64,000 bases of DNA from a virus, in the IMG/VR virus record IMGVR_UViG_3300029438_000229, positions 1 through 64,000 of that record. One strand, given 5' to 3'. The stretch's first letter is position 1; each line of letters starts with the position of its first letter. Positions 1 through 60,830 of this stretch are shown one piece after another. The notes under the pieces were generated by a model. It was not told the DNA's origin and searched no databases. It worked only from the letters and a program-made list of their open reading frames with translations. Made by a program: the position numbers and the translations under genes.

Positions 1-139
1 AAAAGGGCGGACCTCCTGTGATTAGGAAGTCCGCCCTTAAAGCGAAACTATGAATTGTTGTACGAAAGATATTTTTCTTTCCGTGTGAATGTTATCTATC
101 GTACATCTTTCATTCTATGCAACTCGCACAACTTGGCAA
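1..139 (-). promoter_or_regulatory. Promoter-leader-terminator cassette, copy A (transcribes leftwards out of the window)
   Basis: Minus strand: -35 TTGCCA (134-139), 16-nt spacer with GCGAG, -10 TAGAAT (112-117). Then TGTACGATAGATAAC, hairpin GAAAGA/TCTTTC (64-81), TCGTACAAC..TTTCGCTTTAAGG. Ends with hairpin GGGCGGACTTCC/GGAGGTCCGCCC (5-36) plus T-run (1-4). Confidence 0.7.
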
Positions 140-4398: not shown

Positions 4399-4899
4399 TC
4401 AGTTGTTTTCTTTTTCGTGCCTCTCGTCGTCGCGCAGAAGGTCGTTTGCCACTGCTACGGTATCACAGGTGTAGTAGCGTCCGCAGGTGTATTCGCACTG
4501 AGTCAATGTGGCGGAGCAACCGTTGATGCAGCCCATGAAGACATCCTTATTGCCGTTCTCGTCGGTGAAAATGCCGCCGGTCGCGGTGATGCTCTCAACA
4601 TAGGGCAAGCACGGCTCGTCCGTGTCCTCACTCAAGTTCCAGACAATCTCCCAAAAGCTGATGAAGGTGTCATTGTACAAGAAAGAGGGGCGGTTACCGC
4701 TGTCTTTCCGAACCAGTTCTTCAAGGGCATCCCAAGGAACTTCATCTGCAATGAAGATGCCAAATGCGCCACAGGAAAAAACGATTTTTCCAATGTGGCC
4801 GCAGATACGGACATAGTCACCCACATGAAGCTCGTTGTCATTGGCATCGATGAAACCTGTGTCGAAGCCTTTCTGTGCCATTTCATTTGCGTTAGTCAT
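4399..4899 (-). CDS. Hypothetical protein (166 aa)
   Basis: ATG at 4899 is preceded by AAAAGGAG, directly after the terminator of cassette B. The ORF-track extension to 4950 would run through the hairpin. Confidence 0.65.
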   Translation of the reverse strand: MTNANEMAQKGFDTGFIDANDNELHVGDYVRICGHIGKIVFSCGAFGIFIADEVPWDALEELVRKDSGNRPSFLYNDTFISFWEIVWNLSEDTDEPCLPYVESITATGGIFTDENGNKDVFMGCINGCSATLTQCEYTCGRYYTCDTVAVANDLLRDDERHEKENN

Positions 4900-4928
4900 T
4901 TTAATACACTCCTTTTTGAAATTGACGC

Positions 4929-5062
4929 AAAAAAGCGGACCTCCCAACATCGGGAAGTCCGCCTTAAAGCGAAATTGTGAATTGTACGAGCGCAGTCAGC
5001 GCCTTAGTAGAATGGTATCTATCGTACAATCTCAATTATATCCGACTCGCACGAAGATGCAA
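4929..5062 (-). promoter_or_regulatory. Promoter-leader-terminator cassette, copy B
   Basis: -35 TTGCAT (5057-5062), 16-nt spacer with GCGAG, -10 TATAAT (5035-5040). Then ATTGTACGATAGATACC, hairpin GGCGC/GCGCU, TCGTACAATTCACAATTTCGCTTTAAGG. Ends with hairpin GCGGACTTCCC/GGGAGGTCCGC (4935-4962) plus T-run. Confidence 0.75.
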
Positions 5063-5066
5063 ATGT

Positions 5067-5285
5067 TTAATTGCCCTCATGGAAAAATGTATGCGTGAAT
5101 TCCGGATGCCCAGCAAACACCTTCTCAACGACCTGAGGCAAGTCATGGATATCGTCCAGAATGAGCCGTCCTTGTCTATCGCGATACGGTGCCACTGCTG
5201 CGGTTTTCTCTGCAAAATAAGCGTTAAACGCCTCTTCGCTGTCAAATTCCGGCATTAACGCAATTTCCCGGCTGCGGTCCTTCAT
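5067..5285 (-). CDS. Small hypothetical protein (~72 aa)
   Basis: ORF immediately after the stop of 5302-5739. The ATG at 5285 has GAGG upstream. Confidence 0.45.
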   Translation of the reverse strand: MKDRSREIALMPEFDSEEAFNAYFAEKTAAVAPYRDRQGRLILDDIHDLPQVVEKVFAGHPEFTHTFFHEGN

Positions 5286-5301
5286 AATTTGCACCGCCTC
5301 G

Positions 5302-5739
5302 TCAAACGCCGAGAAGCTCGCGTTCTTCGGCAGTCAGTTTATCGAGAACCTTCTGCCTGCGCTTTTCGCGCGATTCCTGCTTGGTGCTGATGATGAAGGT
5401 ATCGGCGTGGTCGCCATTCCGCACAAAGACGGGACGGTCTTTCAGCATATTCCGCATCGCGTCCAAACGCTCTTCCTTTGTCATGTCATACATGCCGGAT
5501 GCGCCGTAAATGGAAATGTTGATTTCATCCTTTTTCGGGGTCTTATCATAGGCGGTGGGGTCTACGGCGGTGAAATAGAGGGTGTAATAGTAGCACCTGT
5601 CGGCGAGCGCCAACGCGATGGTATCGATATTTCCCTCAAAGACACCAAGGTCGGTGATGGAGCGACCCTCGCAGTCACCCTCCGTGGTGACATGCCAGAA
5701 TCCGTAGGCTTTGTCGTAAGGTTTGTTGAATTCAATCAT
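5302..5739 (-). CDS. Hypothetical protein (145 aa)
   Basis: ORF with protein-like composition but no clear SD. Confidence 0.5.
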   Translation of the reverse strand: MIEFNKPYDKAYGFWHVTTEGDCEGRSITDLGVFEGNIDTIALALADRCYYYTLYFTAVDPTAYDKTPKKDEINISIYGASGMYDMTKEERLDAMRNMLKDRPVFVRNGDHADTFIISTKQESREKRRQKVLDKLTAEERELLGV

Positions 5740-5791
5740 TGTAAATCAGGGCAAGGAGACCCGCGACTTTAGGCGTGGGAGGAATTGCCCT

Positions 5792-6512
5792 TCACATCCT
5801 TTCTATTAGATAATTTGTTGCAGGTTCTAATAGCTGCAACTTTTTGAATGAAATACTGTTTGTAACGACAGTGCCATCAAGCTTTCTGAGAGCAAAGCTT
5901 CCTGATGCACGACGACCGGAAACGAAGCACTCTTGCCCCTTGTAGAGAACCTTATCCCAAAGACGATAGCCTTCGACAACATAAGGCATTTGGCTTCTTT
6001 TGCGAATGCTACCTTTTGAGAAGTTTGCTTTATGGGTTTGACGATTGTGATGCCTTATAGCTTTTGTGCGATAGCAAACACTGCATGGTTCAGCAAATGG
6101 ATGCTTGCTGATACAACGGGCATCGTTTACATGGCTTTTCTTGATGTCATTTTTCTCTCGCAGATTCAACCGTAATGTGATTTCCTTCTTGCCCTTTTTC
6201 AACTTCTTTTGGAAGCAGTTTGCCATCCATATCGAAAGCTTCGACAAGACAAATTCCGTTTTTTTGCAAACTTGAAGCAAGTCTTTGAATGTTGCAATAC
6301 AGCTTACACCGGGGATTGCTACAAACAAATCACCAGACAGATGACTTGCAACAGATGCTTTCAAACCACCTTCTGTAATAAAGATAGTCTTTTCATCTTT
6401 TAAAGGTCTGCTCCAAAACAGTGCTGTATTTTTAGCGGAAGAACCGTTAGGATATCCGGCAGATGTTGCCCAACGGTATCGTTGCTGTTTAAGCTCTGAT
6501 GCTTCTTTCCAT
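5792..6512 (-). pseudogene. Chimeric, frameshifted ORF: Toprim N-terminal part fused to an IscB/RRXRR-type RuvC-III + C-terminal part
   Basis: AAGGAGAG-ATG at 6512 opens only a 7-codon frame. The adjacent frame reads ..FWSRPLKDEKTIFITEGGLKASVASHLSGDLFVAIPGV (Toprim). The expected LVEAFDMDG motif is in the -1 frame after an A7 run. From ~6150 the sequence reads KKSHVNDA (RuvC-III-like) plus ..GYRLWDKVLYKGQECFVSGRRASGSFALRKLDG. Confidence 0.5.
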
Positions 6513-11389: not shown

Positions 11390-11461
11390 TTTGAACAAAC
11401 TCCTTAAAAAATAAATTTACGATGCATACACCGAAAGGCTCCTGCAATCAAATTCCAAAAC

Positions 11462-11589
11462 AAAAAGGCAGGCTCTCCATGTGACTGGAAAGTCTGCCTT
11501 AACGGTTCAGAACTGTGAATGTGTGAATTACCTTTCGGTTGGTATCCATCGTACATTTTTCATTGTATGCGGTTCGCACATTCGCGCAA
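11462..11589 (-). promoter_or_regulatory. Promoter-leader-terminator cassette, copy C (divergent leader)
   Basis: TTGCGC (11584-11589), 16-nt spacer with GCGAA, TACAAT (11562-11567). Then TGTACGATGGATACC and ..ATTCACA... Ends with hairpin GGCAGACTTTCC/GGAGAGCCTGCC (11467-11498) plus T-run. Confidence 0.65.
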
Positions 11590-11615
11590 GGGCTTAAAGG
11601 TGAAATCTGAGAAAA

Positions 11616-13777: not shown

Positions 13778-15343
13778 TTAGCGAGGCAGGTTCTTGTCTA
13801 CCACGATTTCGAGGTTGTAGTGAGGCAGTTTCGCAACATCACCCTTCGCAACCTTGAGAGCCGCCTTCATCTTGTCATCAGGCATGGACTGGATAAGGCT
13901 GTTCAGTTCCTCACAGGTGTGGCTGAGCATCGGACCGCGACTGGTGGTGAACATCGTAGCGGAAACCGGCTGGCAACCCTGAGAGACCATACCGTCCCAA
14001 TGCGTGCGCAGTTCAGCAACAGACTTCATGTTAGCAGCAGTGCTCATGAAATCATAGATGTTGCAGTGGTTCTCGTCGATGTATTCAAGGACATCGATGC
14101 GAGTGCGGTTCGCATATACAGGGAACTGGAGCTCGACCTTGTTGCCGGTGTTGTTCATGATACGCTCAGCAAACTGCTTGGCGTACTCCACGAGGGGGCA
14201 GGTCTTGTCTTCCACGACAGGAACAGCATCCTTCACAGCATCGAAGATGGCACGCCAGCCCTCATCGCTCAAATCGATGTTGGACTTGTTTGCGAGGGTG
14301 TTCAGGAACCCACGCGGCAGGTCAGAGATATCGATGGCGATGGTGCCGGTGAACAGGTTGAAGGAAGGATGACGAGCACGGTCCCAGATGGTATCCAACT
14401 GTGCGGTAGCGATAACGCGGTCGCCGAGCTGGATATCCACACCTTGGGTGCTCATATTTCCCTGATAATAGTGCTTCAGGGCGTAACCACCGGTCACTGC
14501 ACGAGTCTGAGTAGCGGCTGCGTTGAGCAGACCGACCTCAACGGAAACAGGGATATCGTGACCATTGTAGTTCACGCTCAGATGATGCGTCCCGGTCACA
14601 GCCTTGTAGCGCTGGAAGATAGGCTTGACGAAAACATCGCAAGTCTTGCCGTTCGCCATCTGATAGTCGGGAATCAGGATACGGGCGGGAGCGGCACCGG
14701 AATCATCGGGCTTGAGGTAGTTGCGATACTTGACGCCGAAATGCTCCGCAATGGAACGGCGCAGCACATTGAGGCTGGAAACCTTGCTCGGAGCGCAGCT
14801 ACCATTCTGGGTCAGCATAGTGCTTGCGGTGCTCTTGTCCATCTCCACATAGATGATGGTGGAGGGAGCGCCGAGAGGCTTGTAAGCATCACGCATGACG
14901 ATGTCGGCAAGAGGGATATCCTGCTGTTCAACAATCTTCATCTTGGTGTCGAAGGGGCCGTCAACGAGGTGGTAGGAATCTTCTTCCGGCTTCTTGGTGG
15001 CGATGAACCACGGATACTTGTTCCGGGTAGCGACCAGCAGGAAGTTGTTGAGACCTACGCCGTGGATGCACAGAGGACCCTCATCGGTGTGACGAGAGCC
15101 AAACTGCAGGCTTTCGCTCACCTCGTTGATGTCCATACCGTTGCCCCAGTCGGCAGTAACCATGCCGATTAGGTCCTTCTCGGAGCCTGGTACGAACGCA
15201 ACCAGAGCGTTTACAGGGCCGGTGCTGTTCGACAGGATGTTGTCCATGGGCTCGCAAGCGGCGCTGTGCATCGGGAGAAACTGGTTGGAAACGGCATTGA
15301 AGTAGTTCTTGGTAATACCAACATTGAGAATATGTGCCTTCAT
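13778..15343 (-). CDS. GHKL (Bergerat-fold) ATPase-like protein, MORC/HATPase_c_3-like N-terminus
   Basis: Ordered motifs E-PMDN-ILSNS (N box), TADWGNGMD (DxGxG) and HGVGLNN (G2). I chose the ATG at 15343 (MKAHILNVG) rather than the ORF-track start at 15469. Confidence 0.6.
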   Translation of the reverse strand: MKAHILNVGITKNYFNAVSNQFLPMHSAACEPMDNILSNSTGPVNALVAFVPGSEKDLIGMVTADWGNGMDINEVSESLQFGSRHTDEGPLCIHGVGLNNFLLVATRNKYPWFIATKKPEEDSYHLVDGPFDTKMKIVEQQDIPLADIVMRDAYKPLGAPSTIIYVEMDKSTASTMLTQNGSCAPSKVSSLNVLRRSIAEHFGVKYRNYLKPDDSGAAPARILIPDYQMANGKTCDVFVKPIFQRYKAVTGTHHLSVNYNGHDIPVSVEVGLLNAAATQTRAVTGGYALKHYYQGNMSTQGVDIQLGDRVIATAQLDTIWDRARHPSFNLFTGTIAIDISDLPRGFLNTLANKSNIDLSDEGWRAIFDAVKDAVPVVEDKTCPLVEYAKQFAERIMNNTGNKVELQFPVYANRTRIDVLEYIDENHCNIYDFMSTAANMKSVAELRTHWDGMVSQGCQPVSATMFTTSRGPMLSHTCEELNSLIQSMPDDKMKAALKVAKGDVAKLPHYNLEIVVDKNLPR

Positions 15344-15776: not shown

Positions 15777-15933
15777 TTGCTGTATTTGCAGCAAAACAAC
15801 GATTTTCGCATTAACGCAGCGTGTACGTCCCGCTTTTTAGGCAGGAAATCTATTATAATCACCGTATCGTGGTGTACTACGATGCAGGAATGTTCCCGCA
15901 TGACCAAAAACAGATAGTCCGCAAAAACCTCCA

Positions 15934-16083
15934 AAAGAAAAAGGACAGACACCCATGACGAGTGTCTGTCCTTTTCAAGAAAAGAGGATTGTGAATATGG
16001 CTATTGTTGCACTACCTATACAGGTAATGATACTGGTATCTTTGGTACGATTATTATTCTATGCCGTTCGCAAGCGCTGTCAA
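15934..16083 (-). promoter_or_regulatory. Promoter-leader-terminator cassette, copy D (divergent leader)
   Basis: TTGACA (16078-16083), 16-nt spacer with GCGAA, TAGAAT (16056-16061). Then CGTACCAAAGATACC, hairpin TACCT/AGGTA and ..ATTCACAAT... Ends with hairpin GGACAGACAC/GTGTCTGTCC (15943-15971) plus T-run. Confidence 0.65.
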
Positions 16084-16140: not shown

Positions 16141-17055
16141 TTATTCGTTGATGTTTTTCTGGTTGTGGTGAAGGGCACCACGGACAAATTGGTTCCAGCG
16201 AGCATGGTACAGGACGAACCCGTCCTCGAACTCCACCGTGATGTTGTTGACACCATGATAAGCAATACAGGTGGCTTTGCTGCCATTTTTCATCGTCATC
16301 GTAGTGCCAACAGATTTCACATAATCGTGCTCATCCTTGCGAGCTGCACTGATAGTACGCATCCGCATTTTGCAGTCGGGACAGCAGGTAGCACCGGATG
16401 CAATAGCCCGCGTCATGGCGCGAACGCTTGTCACGAACTCTTTTTTGCAATCCGGGCATACGAAGATAGCTCTTCTTTCCGAACGAGCGGAAATTTCGCT
16501 GGGAGTGTAATCGTTCTTGTCGCTCCACATAGGAACAACCTTAGGACACTGGGTAGCCAAATCATTGATACCAGAAACAACCTTGCGACCTGCGCAAACA
16601 GGGCAACCTGTGCTGCCATTTTGTACGGTATGAACTACATTGCAGATAGAAGCTTCAAACTCCTGCTTACAATCTGGGCATACGAACCACGCTTTCTTGT
16701 TATTGCCTGCAGATGCTTCGCTGGGGGTGTATGTGTTCTTTGCACTCCACATAGCGAAAATCTTAGGACACTTGGTAGCCAAATCATTGATGCCAGGGAC
16801 GACCTTGATACCTGCACAAACAGGGCAACCGGTATTACCACGCATCAAGGACCTTGCGATATGGAAAGCACGGGCTTCAAACTCCTGCTTACAATCGGGG
16901 CATACGAACCACGCTTTCTTGTTGCTGCCTACAGATACTTCGCTAGGGGTGTATGTGTTCTTGGAACTCCACATAGCGGAAATCTTAGGACACTTGGTAG
17001 CCAAATCGTTGACGCCGGAAATGACATTCTTGGAATTGATAGTGTTAGTATTCAT
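16141..17055 (-). CDS. Protein with three tandem treble-clef zinc-ribbon repeats
   Basis: Three 74-aa repeats of the form INDLATKCPK..MWS.KN.YTPSE.S.....KAWFVCPDCKQEF........G.TGCPVCAG. GAGGAGAAAGAG upstream of the ATG. Confidence 0.75.
   Translation of the reverse strand: MNTNTINSKNVISGVNDLATKCPKISAMWSSKNTYTPSEVSVGSNKKAWFVCPDCKQEFEARAFHIARSLMRGNTGCPVCAGIKVVPGINDLATKCPKIFAMWSAKNTYTPSEASAGNNKKAWFVCPDCKQEFEASICNVVHTVQNGSTGCPVCAGRKVVSGINDLATQCPKVVPMWSDKNDYTPSEISARSERRAIFVCPDCKKEFVTSVRAMTRAIASGATCCPDCKMRMRTISAARKDEHDYVKSVGTTMTMKNGSKATCIAYHGVNNITVEFEDGFVLYHARWNQFVRGALHHNQKNINE
16360..17013 (-). repeat. Three tandem ~222-nt coding repeats
   Basis: DNA-level repeat underlying the three zinc-ribbon modules. 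The first two copies are nearly identical. Confidence 0.75.
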
Positions 17056-17118
17056 GGTAAACTCTCTTTCTCCTCGTATTTTCGAGGCTTGTAATAAATA
17101 AAAATGAGCGACTTGTAG

Positions 17119-17274
17119 TCACAATGTCTTAAACTTATGGCAGCAACGCATCATGGTGCGGATACGAACCAAGTCAATCTCGATTGCCAATGCGTTGATG
17201 GCTTCGAGCAGTGCATAGACAGCCATTGCGGGAATCGCTACAAGTAAAATAATGATGGATTTAATGGCTTTCAT
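17119..17274 (-). CDS. Small membrane protein (51 aa), below the ORF-track cutoff
   Basis: MKAIKSIIILLVAIPAMAVYALL.. with GGAGAAAGAGAG upstream. First ORF after cassette E. Confidence 0.4.
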   Translation of the reverse strand: MKAIKSIIILLVAIPAMAVYALLEAINALAIEIDLVRIRTMMRCCHKFKTL

Positions 17275-17312: not shown

Positions 17313-17432
17313 CAAAAAAAGACAGGTCACCCGGTTGGTGCCTGTCTGAATTTTGTCAGGTTGTAAATGGTTGGTCGTGGTTTGGTATCTATTGTACAAT
17401 ACTCATTCTATACTGTTCGCAAACGCCGTCAA
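17313..17432 (-). promoter_or_regulatory. Promoter-leader-terminator cassette, copy E (divergent leader)
   Basis: TTGACG (17427-17432), 16-nt spacer with GCGAA, TAGAAT (17405-17410). Then ATTGTACAATAGATACC. Ends with hairpin GACAGGCACC/GGTGACCTGTC (17321-17346) plus T-run. Confidence 0.65.
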
Positions 17433-17744: not shown

Positions 17745-19814
<2,070 letters not shown>

Positions 19815-19840: not shown

Positions 19841-19857
19841 AGTATCTATCATACAAT
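19841..19857 (-). promoter_or_regulatory. Decayed copy of the cassette leader start in front of ligA
   Basis: Minus strand ATTGTATGATAGATACT is preceded by degenerate promoter elements (GCTAA instead of GCGAA). There is no leader terminator. Confidence 0.35.
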
Positions 19858-19930: not shown

Positions 19931-20320
19931 TTACTTTCTCTTCACCTTATCGTATTTCACGCCGAGAATCTCAGCGGCAGCGTTAAGGGTTTCGAGAGAA
20001 ATATTGTTAAAGTCATTTTGTGCTGCCATATACAGCGCTTTTGTGCATCTGACGGCGTCACAAATATCGTAGATGGTATCCTTGTTTTCGAAAATCAGCA
20101 AATACTGCTCATAGCCGACTGTGGTATCTTCTCGATACTCGACACCGTTGGCATCGAACTCATATAAGCGGTTTGCGGTTCCGGAAGTCGGGATGCATTC
20201 AAAACGGTTGGTATCAGAATCCGTGTGTGTGACCACCATTTTGCGAATCGTCTCGGGATAAGGAACCCCAAAGCGAAACTCGACCATCCAGAGATAATCG
20301 CCTGCCTTAACAGAAAGCAT
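19931..20320 (-). CDS. Hypothetical protein (129 aa)
   Basis: GAAAGGAAG upstream of the ATG. Confidence 0.6.
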   Translation of the reverse strand: MLSVKAGDYLWMVEFRFGVPYPETIRKMVVTHTDSDTNRFECIPTSGTANRLYEFDANGVEYREDTTVGYEQYLLIFENKDTIYDICDAVRCTKALYMAAQNDFNNISLETLNAAAEILGVKYDKVKRK

Positions 20321-21916: not shown

Positions 21917-21939
21917 TTTCGTTCTCCTTTTTTGAGCGC

Positions 21940-22072
21940 AAAAAGGCGGGCCTCCCAAAATCGGGAAGTCCGCCTTAAAGCAAAATTGTGAATTGTACGA
22001 ACGCAGTTAGCGTCTTAGTAGATGGTATCTATCGTACAATTCTTATTTTATTCGGTTCGCATATCGCGTCAA
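21940..22072 (-). promoter_or_regulatory. Promoter-leader-terminator cassette, copy F
   Basis: TTGACG (22067-22072), 16-nt spacer with GCGAA, TAAAAT (22045-22050). Then ATTGTACGATAGATACC, hairpin GACGC/GCGUU, TCGTACAATTCACAATTTTGCTTTAAGG. Ends with hairpin GGCGGACTTCCC/GGGAGGCCCGCC (21945-21974) plus T-run. Confidence 0.75.
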
Positions 22073-25195: not shown

Positions 25196-25226
25196 GATAC
25201 AAACTCCTTTAAGTGTTTTGGATGCG

Positions 25227-25364
25227 AAAAGAGCGGACCTCTCAGAATCGAGAAGTCCGCCCTTTAAGCGAAATTGTGAATGTACGAAAGGCAGAAAGCC
25301 TTTTTGATTTGGAATGGTATCTATCGTACAATACCCATTCTACTTAGTTCGCATATTTTGGCAA
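25227..25364 (-). promoter_or_regulatory. Promoter-leader-terminator cassette, copy G
   Basis: TTGCCA (25359-25364), 16-nt spacer with GCGAA, TAGAAT (25337-25342). Then ATTGTACGATAGATACC, hairpin AAAGGC/GCCTTT, TCGTACATTCACAATTTCGCTTAAAGG. Ends with hairpin GCGGACTTCTC/GAGAGGTCCGC plus TCTTTTCGC. Confidence 0.75.
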
Positions 25365-27703: not shown

Positions 27704-27841
27704 AAAAAAGGCGGGCTTCTCATCTGAGAAGTCCGCCCTTTAAGCGAAATTGTGAATTGTACGAAAGGCATAAAACCCTTTCGATATGGGATGTTATCTA
27801 TCGTACAATACCCATTCTATTCAGTTCGCACATTTTGGCAA
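27704..27841 (-). promoter_or_regulatory. Promoter-leader-terminator cassette, copy H
   Basis: TTGCCA (27836-27841), 16-nt spacer with GCGAA, TAGAAT (27814-27819). Then ATTGTACGATAGATAAC, hairpin GAAAGG/CCTTTC, TCGTACAATTCACAATTTCGCTTAAAGG. Ends with hairpin GGGCGGACTTCTC/GAGAAGCCCGCC (27710-27738) plus TTTTTTG. Confidence 0.75.
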
Positions 27842-29192: not shown

Positions 29193-29310
29193 AAAAAAAG
29201 CGGGCCCATCCCCCGAAAGGGATAAGTCCGCTAAAAACGAAATTGTGAATTGTAAGATATCTGGTATCTATCGTACAATTCTATTCTACCGGTATCGCAA
29301 GAACATGCAA
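29193..29310 (-). promoter_or_regulatory. Promoter-leader-terminator cassette, copy I (short leader)
   Basis: TTGCAT (29305-29310), 16-nt spacer with GCGAT, TAGAAT (29283-29288). Then ATTGTACGATAGATACC..TTACAATTCACAATTTCG. Ends with hairpin GCGGACTTATCCC/GGGATGGGCCCGC (29200-29231) plus T-run. Confidence 0.7.
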
Positions 29311-35333: not shown

Positions 35334-35361
35334 ATTGTATGCAGTTCGCACAAATGTGCAA
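35334..35361 (-). promoter_or_regulatory. GCGAA-spacer promoter
   Basis: TTGCAC-atttgtGCGAActgca-TACAAT with a 16-nt spacer. Confidence 0.65.
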
Positions 35362-37981: not shown

Positions 37982-38398
37982 TTACTGAGCCTGATATTTT
38001 GCGATAATTCGCCTTGCTTCCCTTTTCGGTACGCCGAACAGAGATACAGCAATTCGACTCAGTTTGTCTTTCTGTGTAGTGTCTGTCAGGACCACAATGC
38101 GATGCATATCATGGATATCAGTAGCGACAACCACCTGAGCAAACCCGATTTTATCTTCAACGAACAGTCGCTTTAATTCTTTTGCAAACTCTTCCTTGCT
38201 CAGTTTAAGCATATAATCACTGTTGATGAACATGTCGAGTGGGAAAATATGCTCGTTATCGAACTCCTTCGGATGCGCATTTGCAAGGTCGAGTTCCGGG
38301 CGGAACATGGTTTTATCATGCACCAAGCCATAAATAATACCGGCTGCTTCGCCACTTTTGCAATCAATTACAAATTGCCCTCGCTGTGCATCAGCCAT
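37982..38398 (-). CDS. Hypothetical protein (138 aa)
   Basis: ATG at 38398 after GGAGGGGA. Confidence 0.55.
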   Translation of the reverse strand: MADAQRGQFVIDCKSGEAAGIIYGLVHDKTMFRPELDLANAHPKEFDNEHIFPLDMFINSDYMLKLSKEEFAKELKRLFVEDKIGFAQVVVATDIHDMHRIVVLTDTTQKDKLSRIAVSLFGVPKREARRIIAKYQAQ

Positions 38399-38834
38399 AA
38401 GTTGTCCCCTCCGCAAGTTTTTCGTATATATTCTGTGTGCGTGTGTTGTTTTCGTCTTTGTGCATGAGCACGACATTTGCCATGCTTGTATAATAGCTGG
38501 CATCACTGTTACCTTCTACGGTAAATTTTATGTTCTGCCCGTTATCGACTACCTCGTAGCTGATGAGTTTACCCGTGACCCACTGATTATTGTACCGGAA
38601 GTATATGTAGTTGTATTCCGTGGCGGCTGTCTCGGGCGTCATGTTTATATCCGAACCAGCCGTCTCAGTAGTCTCTGGGGTTGCCATATGAATGATTTGC
38701 GCAGGCAAGTCCTTGATGCCGTCCATGGTCTTGTCTGCCACCTCACTGCATCCCTCGAACGCTACAGAAATGGTTGCGACAGCAAGAAGGAAGAGCGTTT
38801 TGTGGATGAACGAGAGAAATCGCTTCATAGACAT
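38391..38834 (-). CDS. Putative lipoprotein (147 aa)
   Basis: Signal peptide with a FEGC lipobox-like site. Confidence 0.5.
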   Translation of the reverse strand: MSMKRFLSFIHKTLFLLAVATISVAFEGCSEVADKTMDGIKDLPAQIIHMATPETTETAGSDINMTPETAATEYNYIYFRYNNQWVTGKLISYEVVDNGQNIKFTVEGNSDASYYTSMANVVLMHKDENNTRTQNIYEKLAEGTTYG

Positions 38835-41756: not shown

Positions 41757-42893
41757 TCAATTATCCGACTTCACCGCATTGCACTTTTTGCACAGCATCT
41801 GCAGGTTGTTGTCGGTGGTATGCCCGCCCTTGCTCCAAGGAATGATGTGGTCGCCTTCCATATCCTTAAAGGCGTACTCGGTGTTGATGCCATTTGCAAC
41901 GCACAAGGGACACTTGTGACCTTGCCGCTCATAGGCGCGGAGTTTCTGCGACTCAGTGAATGCGCGAAGGGACAGGTGCTTCTCATCGCGCCAAGTACGG
42001 TCAGAGAGGATAAACGGGATGATGCCTGCCTTCTTGGTTACGTCATCATCCAGCACGAGTTTCTTGATGTCAGCTTCCAGAGCGTTGCTGTTGTACTGCT
42101 TTGCATGATACTTGTTGTAGAGCAGTCCCCATGCCTGTGCATCCGTAATTCCCTTCCGTTTCGTCGGGAACAACATCTTCGCCCAGTTGATGACAGACTG
42201 GAAGTAAAGCCAGAGGTCATTGGCATCCTCGTCATGCTGGTGAACCGCCATGTACATCTGCCCGGATTCCAGACCGTCACGGTCAGCAATCCATGCCAGT
42301 GCTTTTTCCAGCAACTCCTGCCGAATCGGGTTGCCTTTCAGGTATCCGTCCGCCATCTTCGCAGCAACGCAGTTGCGTTTCGAAAAGTAGTTTTTGGCAT
42401 CAGCCAGCCACGGTCCTGTGTATGTAGCGTTCAGAAGCTCCTGCGGAGTCAGAACTTCGCCAGCAATGTTAATGCGCTTGAACCATTCCAATTTCTCGGC
42501 TTCAGTGCCTTCGCAGACATAGACCGTCAGCTCATAGTCCAGAATTGCCTGCTTTTCCTCGTTGGTCAAGTTTTGGAAGAACTTGTCGTTGCCATTGATT
42601 TTGATAGGAAAATCCTTGTTAATGTACTGGGCAATAGAGACGGTACGCTGCTGCCCATCAAGAACCTCGTATGTGTCAGCCCCGGTCTTAGACCAGTACA
42701 TGACATTCAGCGGAAATCCGTTCATTACGGAATCGATGACGGCTGCACGCTGCTTCTCCCCGTAAATAAACTCACGCTGGAAGGATGGGCGAATCGTAAG
42801 ACGGTCATTGTAGCCAAAGACACCGCCATCGCCATTATCCTTGTAGTTTTCGACAAGGTCAGATACCTTGATTTTCGTTTCTGTGATTTTCAT
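41757..42893 (-). CDS. DUF262 (ParB-like) + HNH nuclease, GmrSD-like type IV restriction-type architecture
   Basis: N-terminal FQREFIYGEKQR...YEVLDGQQR. C-terminal HNH DHIIPWSKGGHTTDNNLQMLCKKCN. ATGA overlap with the upstream gene. Confidence 0.85.
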   Translation of the reverse strand: MKITETKIKVSDLVENYKDNGDGGVFGYNDRLTIRPSFQREFIYGEKQRAAVIDSVMNGFPLNVMYWSKTGADTYEVLDGQQRTVSIAQYINKDFPIKINGNDKFFQNLTNEEKQAILDYELTVYVCEGTEAEKLEWFKRINIAGEVLTPQELLNATYTGPWLADAKNYFSKRNCVAAKMADGYLKGNPIRQELLEKALAWIADRDGLESGQMYMAVHQHDEDANDLWLYFQSVINWAKMLFPTKRKGITDAQAWGLLYNKYHAKQYNSNALEADIKKLVLDDDVTKKAGIIPFILSDRTWRDEKHLSLRAFTESQKLRAYERQGHKCPLCVANGINTEYAFKDMEGDHIIPWSKGGHTTDNNLQMLCKKCNAVKSDN

Positions 42894-43648
42894 AGTTGTT
42901 TACGACCTTTCTTCTTTTGAGGCGTACACTCTTTTTTAATCTGCTTACGGAGCTTAGCCTCTTGTTGCTCTCGTAATTTCCGTAATGCATCTGACGGTGC
43001 AGCTGTATCCGGTTTTACATCGCCGCCATCCTGATACCACCCGGCAGAATCATGCATTATATCGACGATATATGTTTGACACTCCCCGCCGATACTTTGT
43101 TCTGCGTGATATTGGAATACATCGATGTTCTCAAGAAGGCACCCACGAGTTAATGAAATAGCGTTAGCGAGCGAAAGATTCTTATAGTCGATTCCGGAAT
43201 TCATTATGGCGTGTGCAACATCAGTAATACCGTTATATGAGGCTCCATAAGAGCCAATTTCTGTTGATAAAACAATAGATGATTTGGCAGTGTCGATAGT
43301 GTAAGTACAAGCCATTCTCCCAAATTCTAAATACCCACTAATCTTAAATATTGTGCAGCCGTTACCATTGACGCGGAAGTATTCATTCAATATTTTTAAC
43401 GGCAAATCATCAATGGTGGCTTGCTTCCCATATTTTTTACGTATATCATATAAGAATTGCATTACGGTCAGGTTTTCTCTTACTTTTGCATCGCCACAAT
43501 GGCTTACAACGATACGATTTGGAAAAGGTACTATTTTTTCGGCAGTGTCATCGTATTGAACATGCCCTTTACCATCCCTGCGAGTAGTGCGCGTATCAGC
43601 GCAGACAACAATGCCTTCAGGAACAATAGTATGTATAATCAGTGACAT
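42890..43648 (-). CDS. Proteasome-beta/HslV-like Ntn-hydrolase-fold protein
   Basis: MSLIIH-TIVPEGIVVCADTRTT..., EKIVPF.NRIVVSHCGDA, ..YGASYNG... and ..SIGGECQTYIVD follow the order of proteasome beta-subunit motifs. The start lies 1 nt after the methyltransferase stop. Confidence 0.55.
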   Translation of the reverse strand: MSLIIHTIVPEGIVVCADTRTTRRDGKGHVQYDDTAEKIVPFPNRIVVSHCGDAKVRENLTVMQFLYDIRKKYGKQATIDDLPLKILNEYFRVNGNGCTIFKISGYLEFGRMACTYTIDTAKSSIVLSTEIGSYGASYNGITDVAHAIMNSGIDYKNLSLANAISLTRGCLLENIDVFQYHAEQSIGGECQTYIVDIMHDSAGWYQDGGDVKPDTAAPSDALRKLREQQEAKLRKQIKKECTPQKKKGRKQL

Positions 43649-43649
43649 A

Positions 43650-44693
43650 TCACGCCTCGGCTTTCTTTTGAATGAAAATCCGCTGATAAACCGAATGTAA
43701 GTATTTTCCGTGCTTACTAACACTGTAATCGCATTTACCTTTACCCGGAATTTTTGGGGACATTTTATCTCTCAATGCGCCGGACCCAGAAGGCGAAACT
43801 CCGTCAGTCTTCAAAAATGTGTATTCGCCGTCAGGATAATACACTTCAATTCGGCAAGGCGTATCATCGAACATGGAACCACCAACAATCTCAAACTCAT
43901 CCGGGTTATACTTATCCAGAAATGTGATAGGTACGCCCATAACACCCTTGTAATCCACCGGGATATCCGCAACCCTGTCTACATTGATGGCATCGTAGTT
44001 ATCGTAGTGGGGGTAGCGCTCCTCCGCATCCGGCAAAGGATTCCCGTCATCGTCATAGTACCGCTGCCAGAGAATCAGCTTTTCGTGGCGCTTCTGGATA
44101 TCGAGGTTGGTATACCACAATTTATTCCCGAATTTTTTGATTGTCCCGTCAGGTTGTACGAATTCTTTTACAGAAGAATATCCAAGCCAGACTTCATTGT
44201 TCTTTAGCATCGGGAAAATTTCTTTGTAAGTAATCCAGTTGAGGTCTCCGATGATAACAAATTGCTTGCCATGCTCGCGTAAACACTGGACATAAGCCCT
44301 TGCAAGGGAAAAGGGCGGATTCGTTACCACAATATCGCTCTCATCCAGCAAGTCGAGACATTCCTTGTTTCGGAAATCGCCGTTACCTTCCAGCGGGGTC
44401 TTAACTCCGACTTCCACATTGTTGTCGTCCCCACCCTCGTATTCCATCTTGTAGGTGGGCTCGGTGCGGTCGTAGTGTGTGGAAATCAGCTTCTTTAAGC
44501 CGAGCTCAGCGAAGTTCAGGTGGAAATACCGCCAGAAAGCAGACCAAGTGGGGTCGTCACAGTTACAGAATACAACCTTGCCCGCAAAATGCTTTTTGTA
44601 GTGCCGCAGTTCCTCCGCGACATCCTCGATTCTGGTATAGAACTCGTCGTTCTTAGCGTCTTTCGCTTTATGCAAATTATCGTTCTTTGCCAT
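43650..44693 (-). CDS. N6-adenine DNA methyltransferase (EcoRI-methylase-like family)
   Basis: N-terminal KNDEFYT and catalytic VVTNPPF. GGAGGA upstream of the ATG at 44693. Confidence 0.85.
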   Translation of the reverse strand: MAKNDNLHKAKDAKNDEFYTRIEDVAEELRHYKKHFAGKVVFCNCDDPTWSAFWRYFHLNFAELGLKKLISTHYDRTEPTYKMEYEGGDDNNVEVGVKTPLEGNGDFRNKECLDLLDESDIVVTNPPFSLARAYVQCLREHGKQFVIIGDLNWITYKEIFPMLKNNEVWLGYSSVKEFVQPDGTIKKFGNKLWYTNLDIQKRHEKLILWQRYYDDDGNPLPDAEERYPHYDNYDAINVDRVADIPVDYKGVMGVPITFLDKYNPDEFEIVGGSMFDDTPCRIEVYYPDGEYTFLKTDGVSPSGSGALRDKMSPKIPGKGKCDYSVSKHGKYLHSVYQRIFIQKKAEA

Positions 44694-44706
44694 CTCCGTA
44701 TCCTCC

Positions 44707-44740
44707 AAAAACAAAACCCCCGATGCCGTAACATCGGAGG
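44707..44740 (-). terminator. Intrinsic terminator directly upstream of the methyltransferase SD
   Basis: CCTCCGATG-ttacgg-CATCGGGGG followed by TTTTGTTTTT (minus strand). Confidence 0.65.
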
Positions 44741-44752
44741 CGTAAAAATCAA

Positions 44753-46066
44753 TTATTTATCGTTAAGAATCGCCAGCAACTCATCGAGGCTGGTCACATA
44801 CTGGTATTTTCTCGCCATCTCACCAGGCACTGGAATCAACTCGCTCATGTAATAAAGAACCTGCACTCCGTTGCTGGTGCATTCGTTATACTTGTCGGTA
44901 TCCCGCTGCTTTCGTGCCTCGAAATCCCCGTCATCGCTGCCGTAGGGGTAAAAGTGCTGCACACCCTGACACTCGATGGCGATGTTCTTGCCTGGCAGGA
45001 AGAAATCCAGACGCTTCTTCCCCATCCACGGAAACATCTTTTCCCGCTGATACTCGATACCGTTGCATTTGAGCATCATGAGCACATCGTTTTCGAGGTA
45101 GGACTTCTCGCGCAGGAAATCTTCCGTATTTCGGTAGATTACCGGCTTGGCAGTCTGACTGATAGCTTTGTTGGGGTTCAGTTTCTTGTAATGCACGGTC
45201 GTCGGTCGGACATAGACGACCTTGCCGCTTTGCAGATGCCGGAAATGTCCGCAACGCTCAGATTGGAGCACGCAGAACCCGGCAAACGCCCGTTTCCCAG
45301 CACCGTCATTCACATAGACGACGATGCCCTTTTTGAGGTCCACGATAGTCTGCTTGGAGGTATTCAGGCATTCTCTGACATCCTTGACCGTTTCCTGCTC
45401 CCCGTTCGCGTGTACGATGCGCTGCTCGACCTTCCGACTCAAACGCCGCCGTTTCCAAAGGCATATCGTGTGCAGCCAGATTTGCAGTATCAGCGCCGCT
45501 GAGCTTGGAGCCGTCACGGTGTTCCGTTCATGTAGGGAATCGCGCTCGGTTCGCAGCCACCGTTCCAGCATGTTGCCAGACTCGTTCAGAACGGAAAGGT
45601 AGCCGTATACCCCATTCCGGGTGTTCACTGCCATCATCAGCCCGTCCACGCCGAATTCCTTCTCTGCCCTTTTCAGCTCGACAAATACCGCCATTTCCCG
45701 CATCCGCCAGTTGTCGGTAGGCATGACCATAGCACAGGTATTCTCGCCCTCAAAGCCTACGAGAATCGGGCATAGGAAAGTTGTGTCAGCCCTTCTGTGG
45801 ACAATGATATATAATGACGCACCGTAGGTATCATCTACCTTGATAGCGTACTCATCGTAGGGCTCAAGCCCATACTCGCCGCGATTCAATCGAAAGTCAC
45901 CGATGACCGATTCGTTGTCGGTCGTGAGTTTCGCAATGGTAGGCAGCTGCAGGATACGAGTAAGACCCTTGACGACCTTATAGCATTCTGCGCTCTTCCC
46001 TTGCATTTGGTACTTGTCATGCGTCAAGTAGAATTCGCGTTGCCATTCGGCGCTATTATTATTCAT
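44753..46066 (-). CDS. Protein with C-terminal DUF559/Vsr-like PD-(D/E)xK endonuclease domain
   Basis: C-terminal ..KKRLDFFLPGKNIAIECQGVQHFYP....RKQRDTDKYNEC..NGVQVLYY. The N-terminal ~330 aa are unrecognised. Confidence 0.6.
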   Translation of the reverse strand: MNNNSAEWQREFYLTHDKYQMQGKSAECYKVVKGLTRILQLPTIAKLTTDNESVIGDFRLNRGEYGLEPYDEYAIKVDDTYGASLYIIVHRRADTTFLCPILVGFEGENTCAMVMPTDNWRMREMAVFVELKRAEKEFGVDGLMMAVNTRNGVYGYLSVLNESGNMLERWLRTERDSLHERNTVTAPSSAALILQIWLHTICLWKRRRLSRKVEQRIVHANGEQETVKDVRECLNTSKQTIVDLKKGIVVYVNDGAGKRAFAGFCVLQSERCGHFRHLQSGKVVYVRPTTVHYKKLNPNKAISQTAKPVIYRNTEDFLREKSYLENDVLMMLKCNGIEYQREKMFPWMGKKRLDFFLPGKNIAIECQGVQHFYPYGSDDGDFEARKQRDTDKYNECTSNGVQVLYYMSELIPVPGEMARKYQYVTSLDELLAILNDK

Positions 46067-46089
46067 GTAAAATCCTCGCTCCCGGCTAC

Positions 46090-47202
46090 TTAGTGCCGAG
46101 AATCTGTAGGTATGTTATTTTCTGAATCAAGTGCTTTTAGCATCTGTTCAGCTAATGCCACCGAAAGCAGCGGCGGGACCGCGTTGCCGATTTCTAAGCG
46201 TTTCAGGCAATCCGAGCCGTAGAACTGATAGCTGTCAGGAAAACTCTGCAACCGTGCTCCTTCACGTATCGTAAGTGCCCTCGAATCTCTCGGATGGATG
46301 CATCTTGATGAGGACGGACAGGCAAAGTTCCGTGTGATGGTAGTGGCGGGTTTCTCCCACCAGAGTTTCGCGTAGGTGTTCTTGAACCCGCTCTTTGGTC
46401 TGAGTTCTTCCGGCAAATCATCTTTGCCTTGCCCATCTTTGAGCGCCGCCATGATTCTGCGAAGATGGGCGCTGTTGTTCGGGGCTTTATGCTCCGTGAG
46501 CGTAGCGGATTCACTCTGCCGGACCCATTGAAGGAATGTATTGCCGGGAGGAGCGGCATACACGGTGCTTTCCTCCCCGCACGAGAGCGCAGGCAGGTCT
46601 TTAAGTGCATCTTGCAGCGTCACATACGGTAGTAGTCCTTCTCCGTGGGTAGGTTCCGGGTATTGAAAGTCATTCTCGCCCAAGAACCCAACCAGAATGA
46701 CCCGTTCCCGCAGCTGCGGTACACCGTAGTCTACGGCATTGAGGATTTTGTATTGGAGGCTGTACCCAATATCCTCGAATTCTTTGCGGACATGCTCAAA
46801 CAGGGCTCCTTTATCCATGCTCAGAATGCCTTTGACATTCTCGAACAAGAAGGCTCTCGGATGCAGGATACAGAGAACGCGCTTGTATTCCATGAAAAGA
46901 TTTGCCCGCGCATCCATTTGGCGTTTACCAAGCGTGGAGTACGACTGACACGGCGGACCACCGACCACGACATCCACTGTACGGTTTCCTATCGCTTGAC
47001 GGAGGATATCTTCAGACAGGTCTTTGATGTCGCCCTGCAGCATATTGACCGAAGGGTGGTTTAGGGTATATGCTTTCGCAATATCCTTTTGCATCTCGTT
47101 CGCCAAGATGATTTCAAAGCGGTCGTTTCTTGAAAACCCGTAACTCAATCCGCCTACACCTGCGAACAGGTCAACGACGGTGTATTTTCTTGTCTCTGGC
47201 AT
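46090..47202 (-). CDS. DNA (cytosine-5) methyltransferase
   Basis: Motifs DLFAGVGG, GGPPCQSYS, ENVKG, QLRERV and GNAVPP. ATG at 47202. Confidence 0.92.
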   Translation of the reverse strand: MPETRKYTVVDLFAGVGGLSYGFSRNDRFEIILANEMQKDIAKAYTLNHPSVNMLQGDIKDLSEDILRQAIGNRTVDVVVGGPPCQSYSTLGKRQMDARANLFMEYKRVLCILHPRAFLFENVKGILSMDKGALFEHVRKEFEDIGYSLQYKILNAVDYGVPQLRERVILVGFLGENDFQYPEPTHGEGLLPYVTLQDALKDLPALSCGEESTVYAAPPGNTFLQWVRQSESATLTEHKAPNNSAHLRRIMAALKDGQGKDDLPEELRPKSGFKNTYAKLWWEKPATTITRNFACPSSSRCIHPRDSRALTIREGARLQSFPDSYQFYGSDCLKRLEIGNAVPPLLSVALAEQMLKALDSENNIPTDSRH

Positions 47203-47235
47203 GATGACTCCAATAAAAAATCCGGCACGAATCAC

Positions 47236-48213
47236 TCATGCCGGACAATGACTTTCTTGCTCTTCAATTTTGCTCAAGATACGGTACAGTTCCGTTCCCA
47301 CGACTCTTGCAAGTTCGCAAGGCACTGCATTACCGATTTGCTTATACTTGCTCGTCAGATTCCCGCAAAAAACCATATCTTTCGGGAATGTCTGGATAGC
47401 AGCTGCTTCTTTATAGGACAAGCGCCTTGTACTGCCTTTCTCCCCGAACTGCCAATGGTCTTTGCCGACCTTCACCATGTCTGGTGACCCGGGCCAGAGA
47501 GGCACTTGCTTTGCCATAGCGGGAATTGTGAACGATACGCTGTCCCATCCGCGTTTCCGGTTCCGGGACATGTAGCGCGAGGAGTAGGCTTCTTTGCAAA
47601 TTTCATCTTCTGCCGCCGGTGCTAAACTCTCTAACGCCTGTCGGATACTGATACGGTCAGGAAAAGGTGTAGGAACCTTGAACTTTACGCCATACCTCTC
47701 AGCAAGGTCTTTTCGGATGCCCACAAGGAGGATTCGCTGTCTATCTTCCGGGACATGATAGTCCGCAGCATTGACAAGGTTGATAGACACTACATATCCC
47801 TTGCTCTCGAAATCCGCGATGATAGCGTCCTTGATTTTCCCGCCACCAAGCGTCAGCAAGCCTTTGACGTTCTCGGCGAGGAACAACTTTGGCTGCTTCT
47901 TTTCGACCAGCTTGACGCAATGCCGGTAGAGCACATTCCGGCTATCGTCGATTTTCCTTGGTCCCGACAGGCTGAAACCCTGGCACGGGAATCCAAAGGA
48001 AGCAATATCGCAATCTGGGATGGTATCGTAGTCCACTTTGCCGATGTCGCCTTCTACCACCGTGGCATTGCTCCACAGCCTATGTGTCTCACAGGCATCA
48101 TGGTTGAAGTCGTTCGCCCATACCGGGCGAAACCCGGCTTGCTCTAAGCCGATATCGAGTCCCCCTGCACCGGAAAACAGAGAGACATGCGTGTATACTT
48201 TGTTCTTATTCAT
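47236..48213 (-). CDS. DNA (cytosine-5) methyltransferase (second copy)
   Basis: Motifs SLFSGAGGLDIG, FGFPCQGFS, ENVKGL, RQRILLVG and GNAVP. ATG at 48213. Confidence 0.92.
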   Translation of the reverse strand: MNKNKVYTHVSLFSGAGGLDIGLEQAGFRPVWANDFNHDACETHRLWSNATVVEGDIGKVDYDTIPDCDIASFGFPCQGFSLSGPRKIDDSRNVLYRHCVKLVEKKQPKLFLAENVKGLLTLGGGKIKDAIIADFESKGYVVSINLVNAADYHVPEDRQRILLVGIRKDLAERYGVKFKVPTPFPDRISIRQALESLAPAAEDEICKEAYSSRYMSRNRKRGWDSVSFTIPAMAKQVPLWPGSPDMVKVGKDHWQFGEKGSTRRLSYKEAAAIQTFPKDMVFCGNLTSKYKQIGNAVPCELARVVGTELYRILSKIEEQESHCPA

Positions 48214-48255
48214 TTTGGCCCTATAAAAAATGAGCGATAAATGCGCGGAATGCAC

Positions 48256-48295
48256 AAAAAACACACGCGCTCATTTATCGAATGCACGCGTGTGT
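48256..48295 (-). terminator. Intrinsic terminator between two methyltransferase genes
   Basis: ACACACGCG-17-nt loop-CGCGTGTGT followed by TTTTTTG (minus strand). Confidence 0.6.
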
Positions 48296-48343
48296 TTAAG
48301 ATGCTTTTTGTTGGTCTTTGTGCGAAAACAAATAGCGGTATCT

Positions 48344-49896: not shown

Positions 49897-49986
49897 AGAA
49901 AAATCAAGCCGCAGAGAACAAATCCCTGCGGCTTATACTAAATCACTTTATATTCTCCATTGTATCCAATTCGCACGAATGTGCAA
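49897..49986 (-). promoter_or_regulatory. GCGAA-spacer promoter plus leader terminator
   Basis: TTGCAC-attcgtGCGAAttgga-TACAAT (49959-49986). Then hairpin AAGCCGCAG..CTGCGGCTT plus GATTTTTC (49897-49934). Confidence 0.6.
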
Positions 49987-53265: not shown

Positions 53266-53396
53266 AAAAAAAGAGCAGACGCACCACTGGGGTGAATCTG
53301 CTCTTCTTCGTCAGAATGTGAATTGTACGGAAGTCGTTTATTATGCTGCTATCTATCGTACAATTATAAGTGTATGCTATTCGCACAGCCTGGCAA
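53266..53396 (-). promoter_or_regulatory. Promoter-leader-terminator cassette, copy J
   Basis: TTGCCA (53391-96), 16-nt spacer with GCGAA, TACACT (53369-74). Then ATTGTACGATAGATAGC...CCGTACAATTCACATTC. Ends with hairpin AGAGCAGA..TCTGCTCT (53272-53304) plus T-run. Confidence 0.7.
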
Positions 53397-57314: not shown

Positions 57315-57342
57315 ATTGTATGCAATTCGCACGGCTGTGCAA
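57315..57342 (-). promoter_or_regulatory. GCGAA-spacer promoter with a ~340-nt leader
   Basis: TTGCAC-agccgtGCGAAttgca-TACAAT with a 16-nt spacer. Confidence 0.65.
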
Positions 57343-59014: not shown

Positions 59015-59133
59015 AGGGCACTTCCTCCTTCCGTCTCAAAGACAATTTGCCGGGACTGTTTCCCGTTGCCCGCTGCTCGCCGCGTGGAGGCTGTCTTTTG
59101 GAACAGCTGCGCGGACAAAACCGCGCTTTTGAG

Positions 59134-60828: not shown

Positions 60829-60830
60829 GG

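Follow-up and report, generated by a model that had tools for sequence, protein, structure and literature searches.

A repeated leader RNA with an intrinsic terminator: a candidate transcription attenuator before the gene cassettes of a putative large mobile element

The island and its repeated cassettes

The window (the whole 64,000-nucleotide stretch of viral DNA analyzed here) codes for an NAD-dependent DNA ligase, a radical SAM protein, a metallo-beta-lactamase-fold lipoprotein, a sortase, two esterases, a UvrD-like helicase, two proteins with the GmrSD N-terminal domain, one of which also has an HNH nuclease domain, a separate HNH homing-type endonuclease, a PLD-type nuclease and four DNA methyltransferases in a row; the remaining genes mostly belong to no recognized family. 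The minus strand at 41757-49201 holds a GmrSD/HNH nuclease, an EcoRI-like adenine methylase, an HNH protein, two C5 cytosine methylases and an N4/N6 methylase, and an AcrVA2-like gene lies about 5 kb past the window's right end (4980-5867 of related locus L236). Contigs with exact copies of window proteins span 144-301 kb and feature the AcrVA2-like gene, an IS605 TnpB, a DUF4314 protein and an N6 methylase as neighbors; one window protein recurs in 1669 blocks of the collection. Judging by its gene content, the region looks like part of a large mobile element, an island devoted to anti-defense or establishment. The related contigs are entered in IMG/VR as viruses, and the available stretches showed no conjugation genes. 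A megablast search with 13 kb against phage and plasmid collections returned no close DNA relatives, and tblastn with the 934-aa helicase recovered only distant matches from Actinobacterial plasmids. The gap after the gene for a VWA-domain protein (59134-60834) holds an HDV-like self-cleaving ribozyme (59038-59107, minus strand; RF02682, HDV-F-prausnitzii; 57.2 bits versus a gathering score of 44), which hints at Faecalibacterium or a relative as the host.

The cassettes of this region are independent transcription units. The repeating unit comprises the terminator of the previous cassette, a promoter, a leader with its own terminator and then 1-4 genes (e.g., 27875-27704, 25509-25227, 22149-21940 and 17482-17314), and the leader is present between promoter and genes in at least 10 cassettes. 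The promoters belong to a class with an imperfect dyad, TTGCAC-N4-GTGCGAA, between the -35 and -10 elements, with at least 25 copies in the window (e.g., 27814-27841, 35334-35361, 49959-49986, 57315-57342 and 62616-62643, all on the minus strand). This class also precedes genes without any leader, and TGCGAA is equally present there. By eye, promoters both with and without a leader show TGTA at about +1.

Searching the window with the 5' motif of the leader (TGTACGATAGATANCA) at up to three mismatches gave 15 matches versus 1.15 expected, the good ones all on the minus strand, and a covariance model recognizes eight copies (A, B, C, F, G, H, I and J). The preliminary description of this DNA had named A, B and F-J, to which the more divergent C, D and E have to be added:

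1..107, minus strand: leader A (71.3 bits with the covariance model; the last U-tract bases probably cut by the window end)
4928-5030, minus strand: leader B (covariance model)
11461..11557, minus strand: leader C (49.3 bits; divergent, GAUGGAUACC, without a canonical P1 3' arm)
15933..16051, minus strand: leader D (via the 5' motif; divergent CGUACCAAAGAUACCA, with terminator; missed by the covariance model)
17314..17400, minus strand: leader E (via the 5' motif; UUGUACAAUAGAUACCA, with terminator; missed by the covariance model)
21939..22040, minus strand: leader F (102.9 bits)
25226..25332, minus strand: leader G (75.4 bits)
27704..27809, minus strand: leader H (82.8 bits)
29193..29279, minus strand: leader I (48.7 bits; minimal form with P1 and GAUA/UAUC, no P3)
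53268..53364, minus strand: leader J (67.1 bits; P1 present, no clear P3)

Four further leaders lie within the next 10 kb past the window's left end (11507-11609, 14768-14869, 17038-17141 and 20201-20299 of related locus L240), the last directly before an N6 methylase gene and beside a DUF4314 gene. A degenerate 5' motif (UUGUAUGAUAGAUACUA) is found at 19843-19855 on the minus strand without a promoter of the family or a terminator. The start of this motif has a complement, UACAAUG, that overlaps the start codon (ATG) of the gene for the NAD-dependent ligase (17745-19808); the motif may be a relic or a translational variant.

Three other leaders, unrelated to the one described here, also carry terminators behind the same promoter class:

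35361 to 35310-35273, minus strand: terminator-bearing leader before the UvrD-like helicase gene
49986-49704, minus strand: terminator-bearing leader with three hairpins, before the four-methylase operon
39126 to 39016-38976, minus strand: terminator-bearing leader before the gene at 37982-38506

Terminators in such unrelated leaders could instead reflect a general antitermination mechanism coupled to the promoter. Among the roughly 68 window ORFs scanned, no match to the ANTAR, CAT_RBD, PRD, Q or NusG families was detected. Clustering the ORFs of related loci for regulators recovered only Mor-like triple-HTH proteins, which match Pfam Mor at 1e-9 and 2.7e-14 and occur in 14-15 related loci:

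L144, from 5888, plus strand: triple-HTH protein, 175 aa
L151, offset 7241, reverse-complement strand: triple-HTH protein, 184 aa

These are plausible candidate activators acting on the TTGCAC-N4-GTGCGAA dyad, which they would fit better than RNA. The sole long plus-strand ORF of the window (50287-52164, 625 aa) has an HTH_3 domain at residues 220-267; being divergently oriented, it would be well placed as the region's master regulator.

Anatomy and conservation of the leader

Read 5' to 3' on the minus strand, the leader region displays five successive parts. First, there is a sigma-70-like promoter, TTGnnn-N-(T/G)TGCGAA-N5-TAnAAT. Second, 4-5 bases after the promoter, comes a near-invariant 5' segment, (A)UUGUACGAUAGAUAMCA. 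Third, a three-way junction is formed by the closing stem P1, the short hairpin P2, which uses the GAUAGAUA segment, and the hairpin P3, which is variable in sequence and abuts P1. Fourth, the variable stretch is followed by (U)CGUACAAUUCACAAUUYYGC, which includes the conserved linker UUCACAAUUYYGC. Fifth, after a short variable stretch, a GC-rich hairpin with U5-8, i.e., an intrinsic terminator, lies about 100 nt from the start. The Shine-Dalgarno sequence and start codon of the gene lie 3' of the terminator.

In copy B, the plus strand at 4981-5030 reads ATTGTACGA...TCGTACAAT, with ATTGTACGA at 4981-4989 and its reverse complement at 5022-5030, just as the closing stem had first been drawn. 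The minus-strand transcript is AUUGUACGA-UAGAUACCAUUCUACUAAG-GGCGC-UGACU-GCGCU-CGUACAAU, with the following features:

5035..5062, minus strand: promoter TTGCAT-N-GTGCGAG-N5-TATAAT, of the element's promoter class (404 matches versus 25 in shuffled sequence, over 1.03 Mb of related DNA)
5022..5030, minus strand: P1 5' arm AUUGUACGA, at or beside the predicted transcript start (P1 96% paired)
5008..5021, minus strand: P2 hairpin UAGA-UACCAU-UCUA (RNAfold; P2 73-77% paired in the alignments), its 5' arm being part of the invariant GAUAGAUA
4990..5003, minus strand: variable hairpin P3, GGCGC-UGACU-GCGC(U) (RNAfold, covariance alignments, RNAalifold)
4981..4989, minus strand: P1 3' arm UCGUACAAU
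4969..4980, minus strand: linker UCACAAU and candidate antiterminator 5' arm UUCGC (4969-4973)
4929..4963, minus strand: intrinsic terminator GGCGGACUUCCC-GAUGU-UGGGAGGUCCGC-U6 (93% paired, 11/14 pairs co-varying in the alignments), its first bases GCGGA (4958-4962) being also the candidate antiterminator 3' arm
4399..4899, minus strand: first gene of cassette B, 166 aa, no Pfam family

The preliminary description had covered P1 and P3 and missed P2, the intrinsic terminator found in every copy and the pairing between linker and terminator.

RNAfold recovered the three-way junction in most of 111 unique cores. P1 pairs UUGUACG(A) with (U)CGUACAA, and P2 takes the form UAGAU-A[ACU]C-AUCUA or UAGA-UACCAU-UCUA, being replaced in a second leader type by CGAUA...UAUCG. 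The 3' end of P3 abuts the P1 3' arm, and the J2/3 strand varies widely (CUAAG, CAAAG, CUGAG, CUUCA, UAG and others). Altogether three leader architectures occur. The closing stem is present in all the copies for which it had been claimed, including I and J, which lack the inner hairpin also ascribed to them; copy I pairs GAUA with UAUC instead. Type-1 leaders contain UAGAU...AUUCUACUAAG, a motif absent from type-2 and type-3 leaders. We take this motif to resemble a circular permutation of the Lachnospiraceae Cas12a repeat AAUUUCUACUAAGUGUAGAU, which may be coincidence. In a natural variant at position 2158 (plus strand) of related locus L219, the promoter is followed immediately by the P1 3' arm, the linker and the terminator, the 5' arm, P2 and P3 being deleted.

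The assignment of the leader to the minus strand is based on context, not folding energy: the genes on both sides of 4981-5030 lie on the same strand as the leader, and an attempt to choose the strand by energy failed, both strands folding equally well with equal minimum free energies for sense and antisense. This equality is also what one might expect if the structure acted in single-stranded DNA, as a priming site or single-strand origin on the transferred strand of a conjugative element. The gene content, reminiscent of a leading or anti-defense region, and the suspected action of EGeRS1 of pLS20 as ssDNA or RNA (PMC8708921) point the same way. Nevertheless, we consider this the least probable of the readings, as the leader always lies on the coding strand between a promoter of the double-stranded type and a U-tract terminator, the available stretches show no conjugation genes and the viral listing of the related contigs is against it.

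Relatives were collected by a gapped pattern requiring both the 5' motif and TTCACAATT, which retrieved at least 115 stretches in IMG/VR contigs of 17-389 kb; from these loci and the window we harvested 174 unique leaders among the matches listed. Since such a pattern could itself create apparent conservation, two less biased collections were made. In the first, anchored on the 404 promoter-class matches, 159 of 253 unique downstream sequences have the 5' motif. The second was anchored on only the 3' half of the leader in metagenome contigs: 71 of the 73 unique matches with a terminator have the 5' motif, 65 of the 73 match the 5' pattern GTACGATAGATANC exactly, and the two exceptions are chance matches from non-gut samples. 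The near-invariance of GUACGAUAGAUA is real and not an artifact of the search. The contigs carrying leaders are mostly labeled human gut. A genome scan with a 15-base pattern, which is too short for this purpose, gave 119 chance matches out of 120, the only real one being in a Clostridiales MAG (L111).

Covariation in the junction and the terminator

All the inner hairpins reported earlier (B, F, G, H and A) are found as written, as are the double changes between B (G5002-C4990) and F (A22013-U22001) and between H (GAAAGG/CCUUUC) and A (GAAAGA/UCUUUC). For a wider sample, a covariance model comprising P1, P2, P3 and the terminator was derived from 42 diverse leaders, and two independently gathered sets, one viral (113 distinct rows) and one from metagenomes (112 distinct rows), were aligned to it:

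All cells paired: viral 90.0%, metagenome 90.0%
Cells paired in shuffles: viral 79.3%, metagenome 82.6%
Cells paired with slid partners: at most 46% in both sets
Shuffles reaching the covariation score: viral 0/500, metagenome 0/500
P1 paired: viral 96.2%, metagenome 96.6%
P2 paired: viral 77%, metagenome 73%
P3 paired: viral 90.5%, metagenome 94.6%
P3 pairs changed on both sides: viral 5/5, metagenome 5/5
Terminator paired: viral 92.8%, metagenome 92.8%
Terminator pairs co-varying: viral 11/14, metagenome 11/14

These alignments were fitted to the covariance model and hence lean towards the modeled structure. RNAalifold on the same alignment predicts P3 and the terminator unprompted, and three observations are independent of the alignment. 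First, the variable region folds better than shuffled sequence (mean z = -1.8, with 72% of regions below -1). Second, 71 of the 84 unique cores have a hairpin of 4 bp or more directly beside the P1 3' arm, with 39 different arm pairs. Third, the P1 arms lie 28-39 nt apart, and 14 nt apart in copy I.

Both sets score above their shuffles in covariation, and the claim that selection acts on pairing rather than sequence holds for P3. It does not extend to P1, which is near-invariant and shows essentially no covariation of its own, with zero double changes in the metagenome set; a stem that almost never varies can offer no covariation for or against itself. P1 is supported indirectly, by the variable distance between its arms (14-39 nt) with P3 always abutting. 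The lower score of P2 stems from its differing register between leader types.

The preliminary description had also offered a DNA-level alternative, in which the two P1 arms are operator half-sites. Half-sites must keep their helical phase, to which the variable arm spacing is unsuited, and both the covariation of P3 and the fixed position of the leader between promoter and terminator argue further against the idea. It may be grouped with a broader DNA-level reading, in which TACGAT (+5 to +10) would serve as a -10-like pause element and a Q-like or Mor-like protein on the TGCGAA dyad would render the polymerase terminator-resistant. Its attractions are an invariant initial transcribed sequence with a TAnnnT hexamer, the conserved promoter dyad, a terminator within 100 nt, as in lambda PR'-tR', the other terminator-bearing leaders behind the same promoter class and the triple-HTH proteins of related loci that match Pfam Mor. 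Yet it leaves the P3 covariation, the variable arm spacing and the pairing of linker with terminator unexplained; TGCGAA is just as frequent before genes without a leader, the cassette-end terminators would be overridden, and the Phage_antitermQ match is not significant (13.6 bits, E = 0.065). We therefore hold a DNA-level mechanism to be distinctly unlikely.

Attenuation and its relation to known systems

The leader has the generic makeup of an intrinsic-terminator attenuator, a GC-rich hairpin and U-run between promoter and start codon. Among the matches listed, 168 of the 174 unique leaders end with a hairpin and U-run 97-110 nt from the start, and the predicted terminators are strong (-17 to -28 kcal/mol, U5-8). 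At a fixed distance after UUCACAA, the linker segment UYYGC is complementary over 5 bp to GCRGA, the first five bases of the terminator 5' arm. Perfect complementarity, with G-U counted, is seen in 54 of the 74 unique linker/terminator combinations, as against 7.6 with shuffled linkers. UUCG(C/U) co-occurs 17 times with GCGGA and once with GCAGA, in which single case the terminator is mismatched too, and UCUG occurs with both GCGGA and GCAGA, as pairing allows. In a structure-free MAFFT alignment the four UYYGC/GCRGA pairs are 78% paired, a figure lowered by about 17 sequences that are out of register, and one position co-varies (U-A 22, C-G 18, U-G 9), with 1/500 shuffles reaching the score. 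For transcripts cut before the terminator 3' arm, RNAfold yields the UYYGC/GCRGA hairpin, and for the full leader it yields the terminator. This pairing is a candidate antiterminator that we consider likely, and it makes a switch plausible.

Several other routes to regulation were tried and rejected. The promoter's GUGCGAA could pair with the linker UUCGC, but this match does not co-vary with the UCUGC class. A leader peptide would have to use a UUG-started frame that runs through copy B and stops early in F, and this frame is not conserved. For a trans-acting antisense or small RNA, no complement of the 5' motif or of UUCACAAUU was found outside the leaders.

Taken together, these features suggest a cis-regulatory, factor-dependent transcription attenuator repeated before many cassettes of one mobile element, a reading that we rate at about an even chance. 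Transcription would start a few bases before or at AUUGUACGA, and the nascent RNA would fold into the 5'-terminal three-way junction of P1, P2 and P3, followed by the conserved single-stranded linker UUCACAAUU. Either the small UYYGC/GCRGA hairpin would then form, permitting read-through, or the terminator would, using the same GCRGA and stopping transcription. A trans-acting factor, most likely a protein of the element or host, would recognize the invariant GUACGAUAGAUA and/or the linker and set the outcome for all cassettes at once. Such a factor is invoked because a 5-bp antiterminator alone cannot beat a GC-rich terminator of 10-12 bp, and with terminators this strong the cassettes would be silent without relief. 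A single regulator fits the sharing of one leader by many cassettes, and a local, non-processive switch would suffice as every cassette comes with an end terminator, a promoter and a leader of its own; processive antitermination is disfavored because it would override the cassette-end terminators. We state the anatomy, the conservation, the covariation of P3 and the terminator and the linker-terminator complementarity as observed, and we infer the start and stop at the predicted sites, the alternation of the two structures and the factor. The more specific proposal that one RNA-binding factor or host-derived signal reads GUACGAUAGAUA/UUCACAAUU, opening or closing at least 15 anti-defense and establishment cassettes at the level of termination, is unlikely as it stands.

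The junction might instead work without a regulator, as a cis-acting RNA antiterminator that binds its own polymerase, perhaps over a short range, in the manner of HK022 put, EAR, conAn2 or canT. A structured RNA directly between promoter and terminator and an invariant sequence, as expected of a polymerase-binding surface, would both accord with this, and no element-encoded protein would yet be available after entry into a new cell. There is precedent in conAn2, which alone is active on nearby terminators and fades with distance (PMC8191782), and in canT, a cis-acting RNA of a conjugative element (PMC11658703). However, constitutive read-through would make the adjacent terminator pointless and would not need the linker-terminator complementarity, the succession of cassette-end terminators and new promoters argues against processive read-through, and the known examples, of 70 to 600 nt, are unrelated in sequence, with no Rfam match for the leader. 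This makes the regulator-free reading fairly unlikely.

A shade less probable again is a leader that does not switch at all, with a 5' stem that blocks 5' exonucleases and a leaky terminator that lowers the output of possibly toxic genes. P1 does begin right at the predicted 5' terminus, no sensor was found, and the plasticity of P3 and the junction, with three architectures and P3 missing in I and J, would be tolerable in a fixed dampener or stabilizer. Against this, it fails to explain why GUACGAUAGAUA and UUCACAAUU are near-invariant beside freely varying flanks or why the linker-terminator pairing is conserved, and the terminators, at -17 to -28 kcal/mol, are strong.

Small-molecule riboswitches classically have a three-way junction ahead of a hairpin and a terminator that exclude each other, and the many copies in one regulon would fit them too; the junction would here be the aptamer for a metabolite or signaling nucleotide and the antiterminator/terminator the expression platform. 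Ligand binding aside, the general pattern of such riboswitches is contradicted by the variable J2/3, the shifting register of P2 between leader types and the dispensability of P3. The invariant bases form one P1/P2 strand and the linker, not a pocket, with the junction, loops and P3 free to vary, which fits a macromolecule better than a small ligand. Rfam 15 at gathering thresholds returned no leader match in the whole window, its sole match being the HDV-like ribozyme. We accordingly regard a riboswitch as very unlikely.

Known attenuators were compared with the leader in turn. At E values up to 10, the best Rfam match of leader B was the T-box (13.8 bits, E = 0.47, threshold 93); a T-box leader, which has a specifier loop and a conserved antiterminator bulge, was rejected on this score and on length, about 100 nt versus about 200 nt or more. 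ANTAR targets comprise two tandem hairpins with hexaloops that begin with A and have G as their fourth base; the second hairpin overlaps the terminator. An ANTAR-regulated leader was set aside, as the antiterminator loops here are of 4-12 nt, the hexaloops are mostly UUUAAG and also UUGAAG, and the window ORFs have no ANTAR match. RAT is a hairpin of about 29 nt that overlaps the terminator and works with a CAT-PRD protein. The RAT/BglG-SacY type was likewise rejected for want of a CAT_RBD or PRD match in the window ORFs, which cover part of the element. The Firmicutes protein attenuators (RAT with BglG/SacY/LicT, ANTAR, PyrR, TRAP) still share with the leader a small hairpin that overlaps the terminator 5' arm, is too weak without a stabilizing protein and places several operons under one factor; unlike the leader, they have no upstream 5'-terminal junction with an invariant strand.

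Like the leader, HK022 put, EAR, conAn2 and Tn916 canT are structured RNAs early in a phage or conjugative transcript that act on downstream terminators in an orientation-specific manner. They differ in being processive or acting over hundreds of bases and in numbering 1-2 per element (PMC8191782, PMC11658703), whereas the leader has at least 10 copies, each with its own promoter and with adjacent and end terminators per cassette, and has no similarity to them in sequence or size. With lambda PR'-qut-tR' the leader shares a conserved element in the promoter spacer, an initial transcribed sequence with a -10-like hexamer and a nearby downstream terminator that yields a short RNA unless a factor acts. 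In contrast, lambda Q needs no RNA structure, while the helices of the leader RNA are under selection, and no Q homolog was found.

The closest concept is that of EGeRS1 and EGeRS2 of the Bacillus conjugative plasmids pLS20 and p576. EGeRS1 is a highly structured, GC-rich element of 420-750 bp that blocks read-through and has no recognizable promoter, and EGeRS2 is a sigma-A promoter with repeated operator motifs (dual TTATCCC) for the element's repressor, the ribbon-helix-helix protein Reg576 (PMC8708921, PMC6294495). As with EGeRS, the leader is a conserved module before many small mosaic anti-restriction or establishment operons in one region of a mobile element. It differs in having no sequence relation and in combining, within about 100 nt, a normal promoter, a small three-way junction and a canonical terminator; as far as known, the mechanisms are different too. 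The counterpart of the EGeRS2 operator would be the TGCGAA dyad. The p576 type of EGeRS2 was itself rejected, as TTATCCC occurs 8 times in the window and never in the promoters of the family. The leader is therefore a terminator-based leader, but a new motif, present in many copies and tied to the cargo cassettes of a mobile element.

The means so far known by which mobile elements time their anti-defense genes after entry into a cell are single-strand promoters in Gram-negative plasmids and repressor-controlled promoters in Bacillus plasmids. The leader looks like an undescribed on/off switch common to much of the element's likely anti-defense gene set, and it would add an RNA-level layer in the form of a terminator switch copied before many cassettes. 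If one factor does read all the copies, it would represent a new family of antiterminator (or terminator-promoting) proteins along with a new RNA motif. Being small, sharply defined and highly repeated, the leader is amenable to tests with reporters and a good bait for its partner. Elements bearing it are very common in human gut metagenomes, and it would be useful as a marker by which to find such cassettes, whose products are mostly proteins of unknown function.
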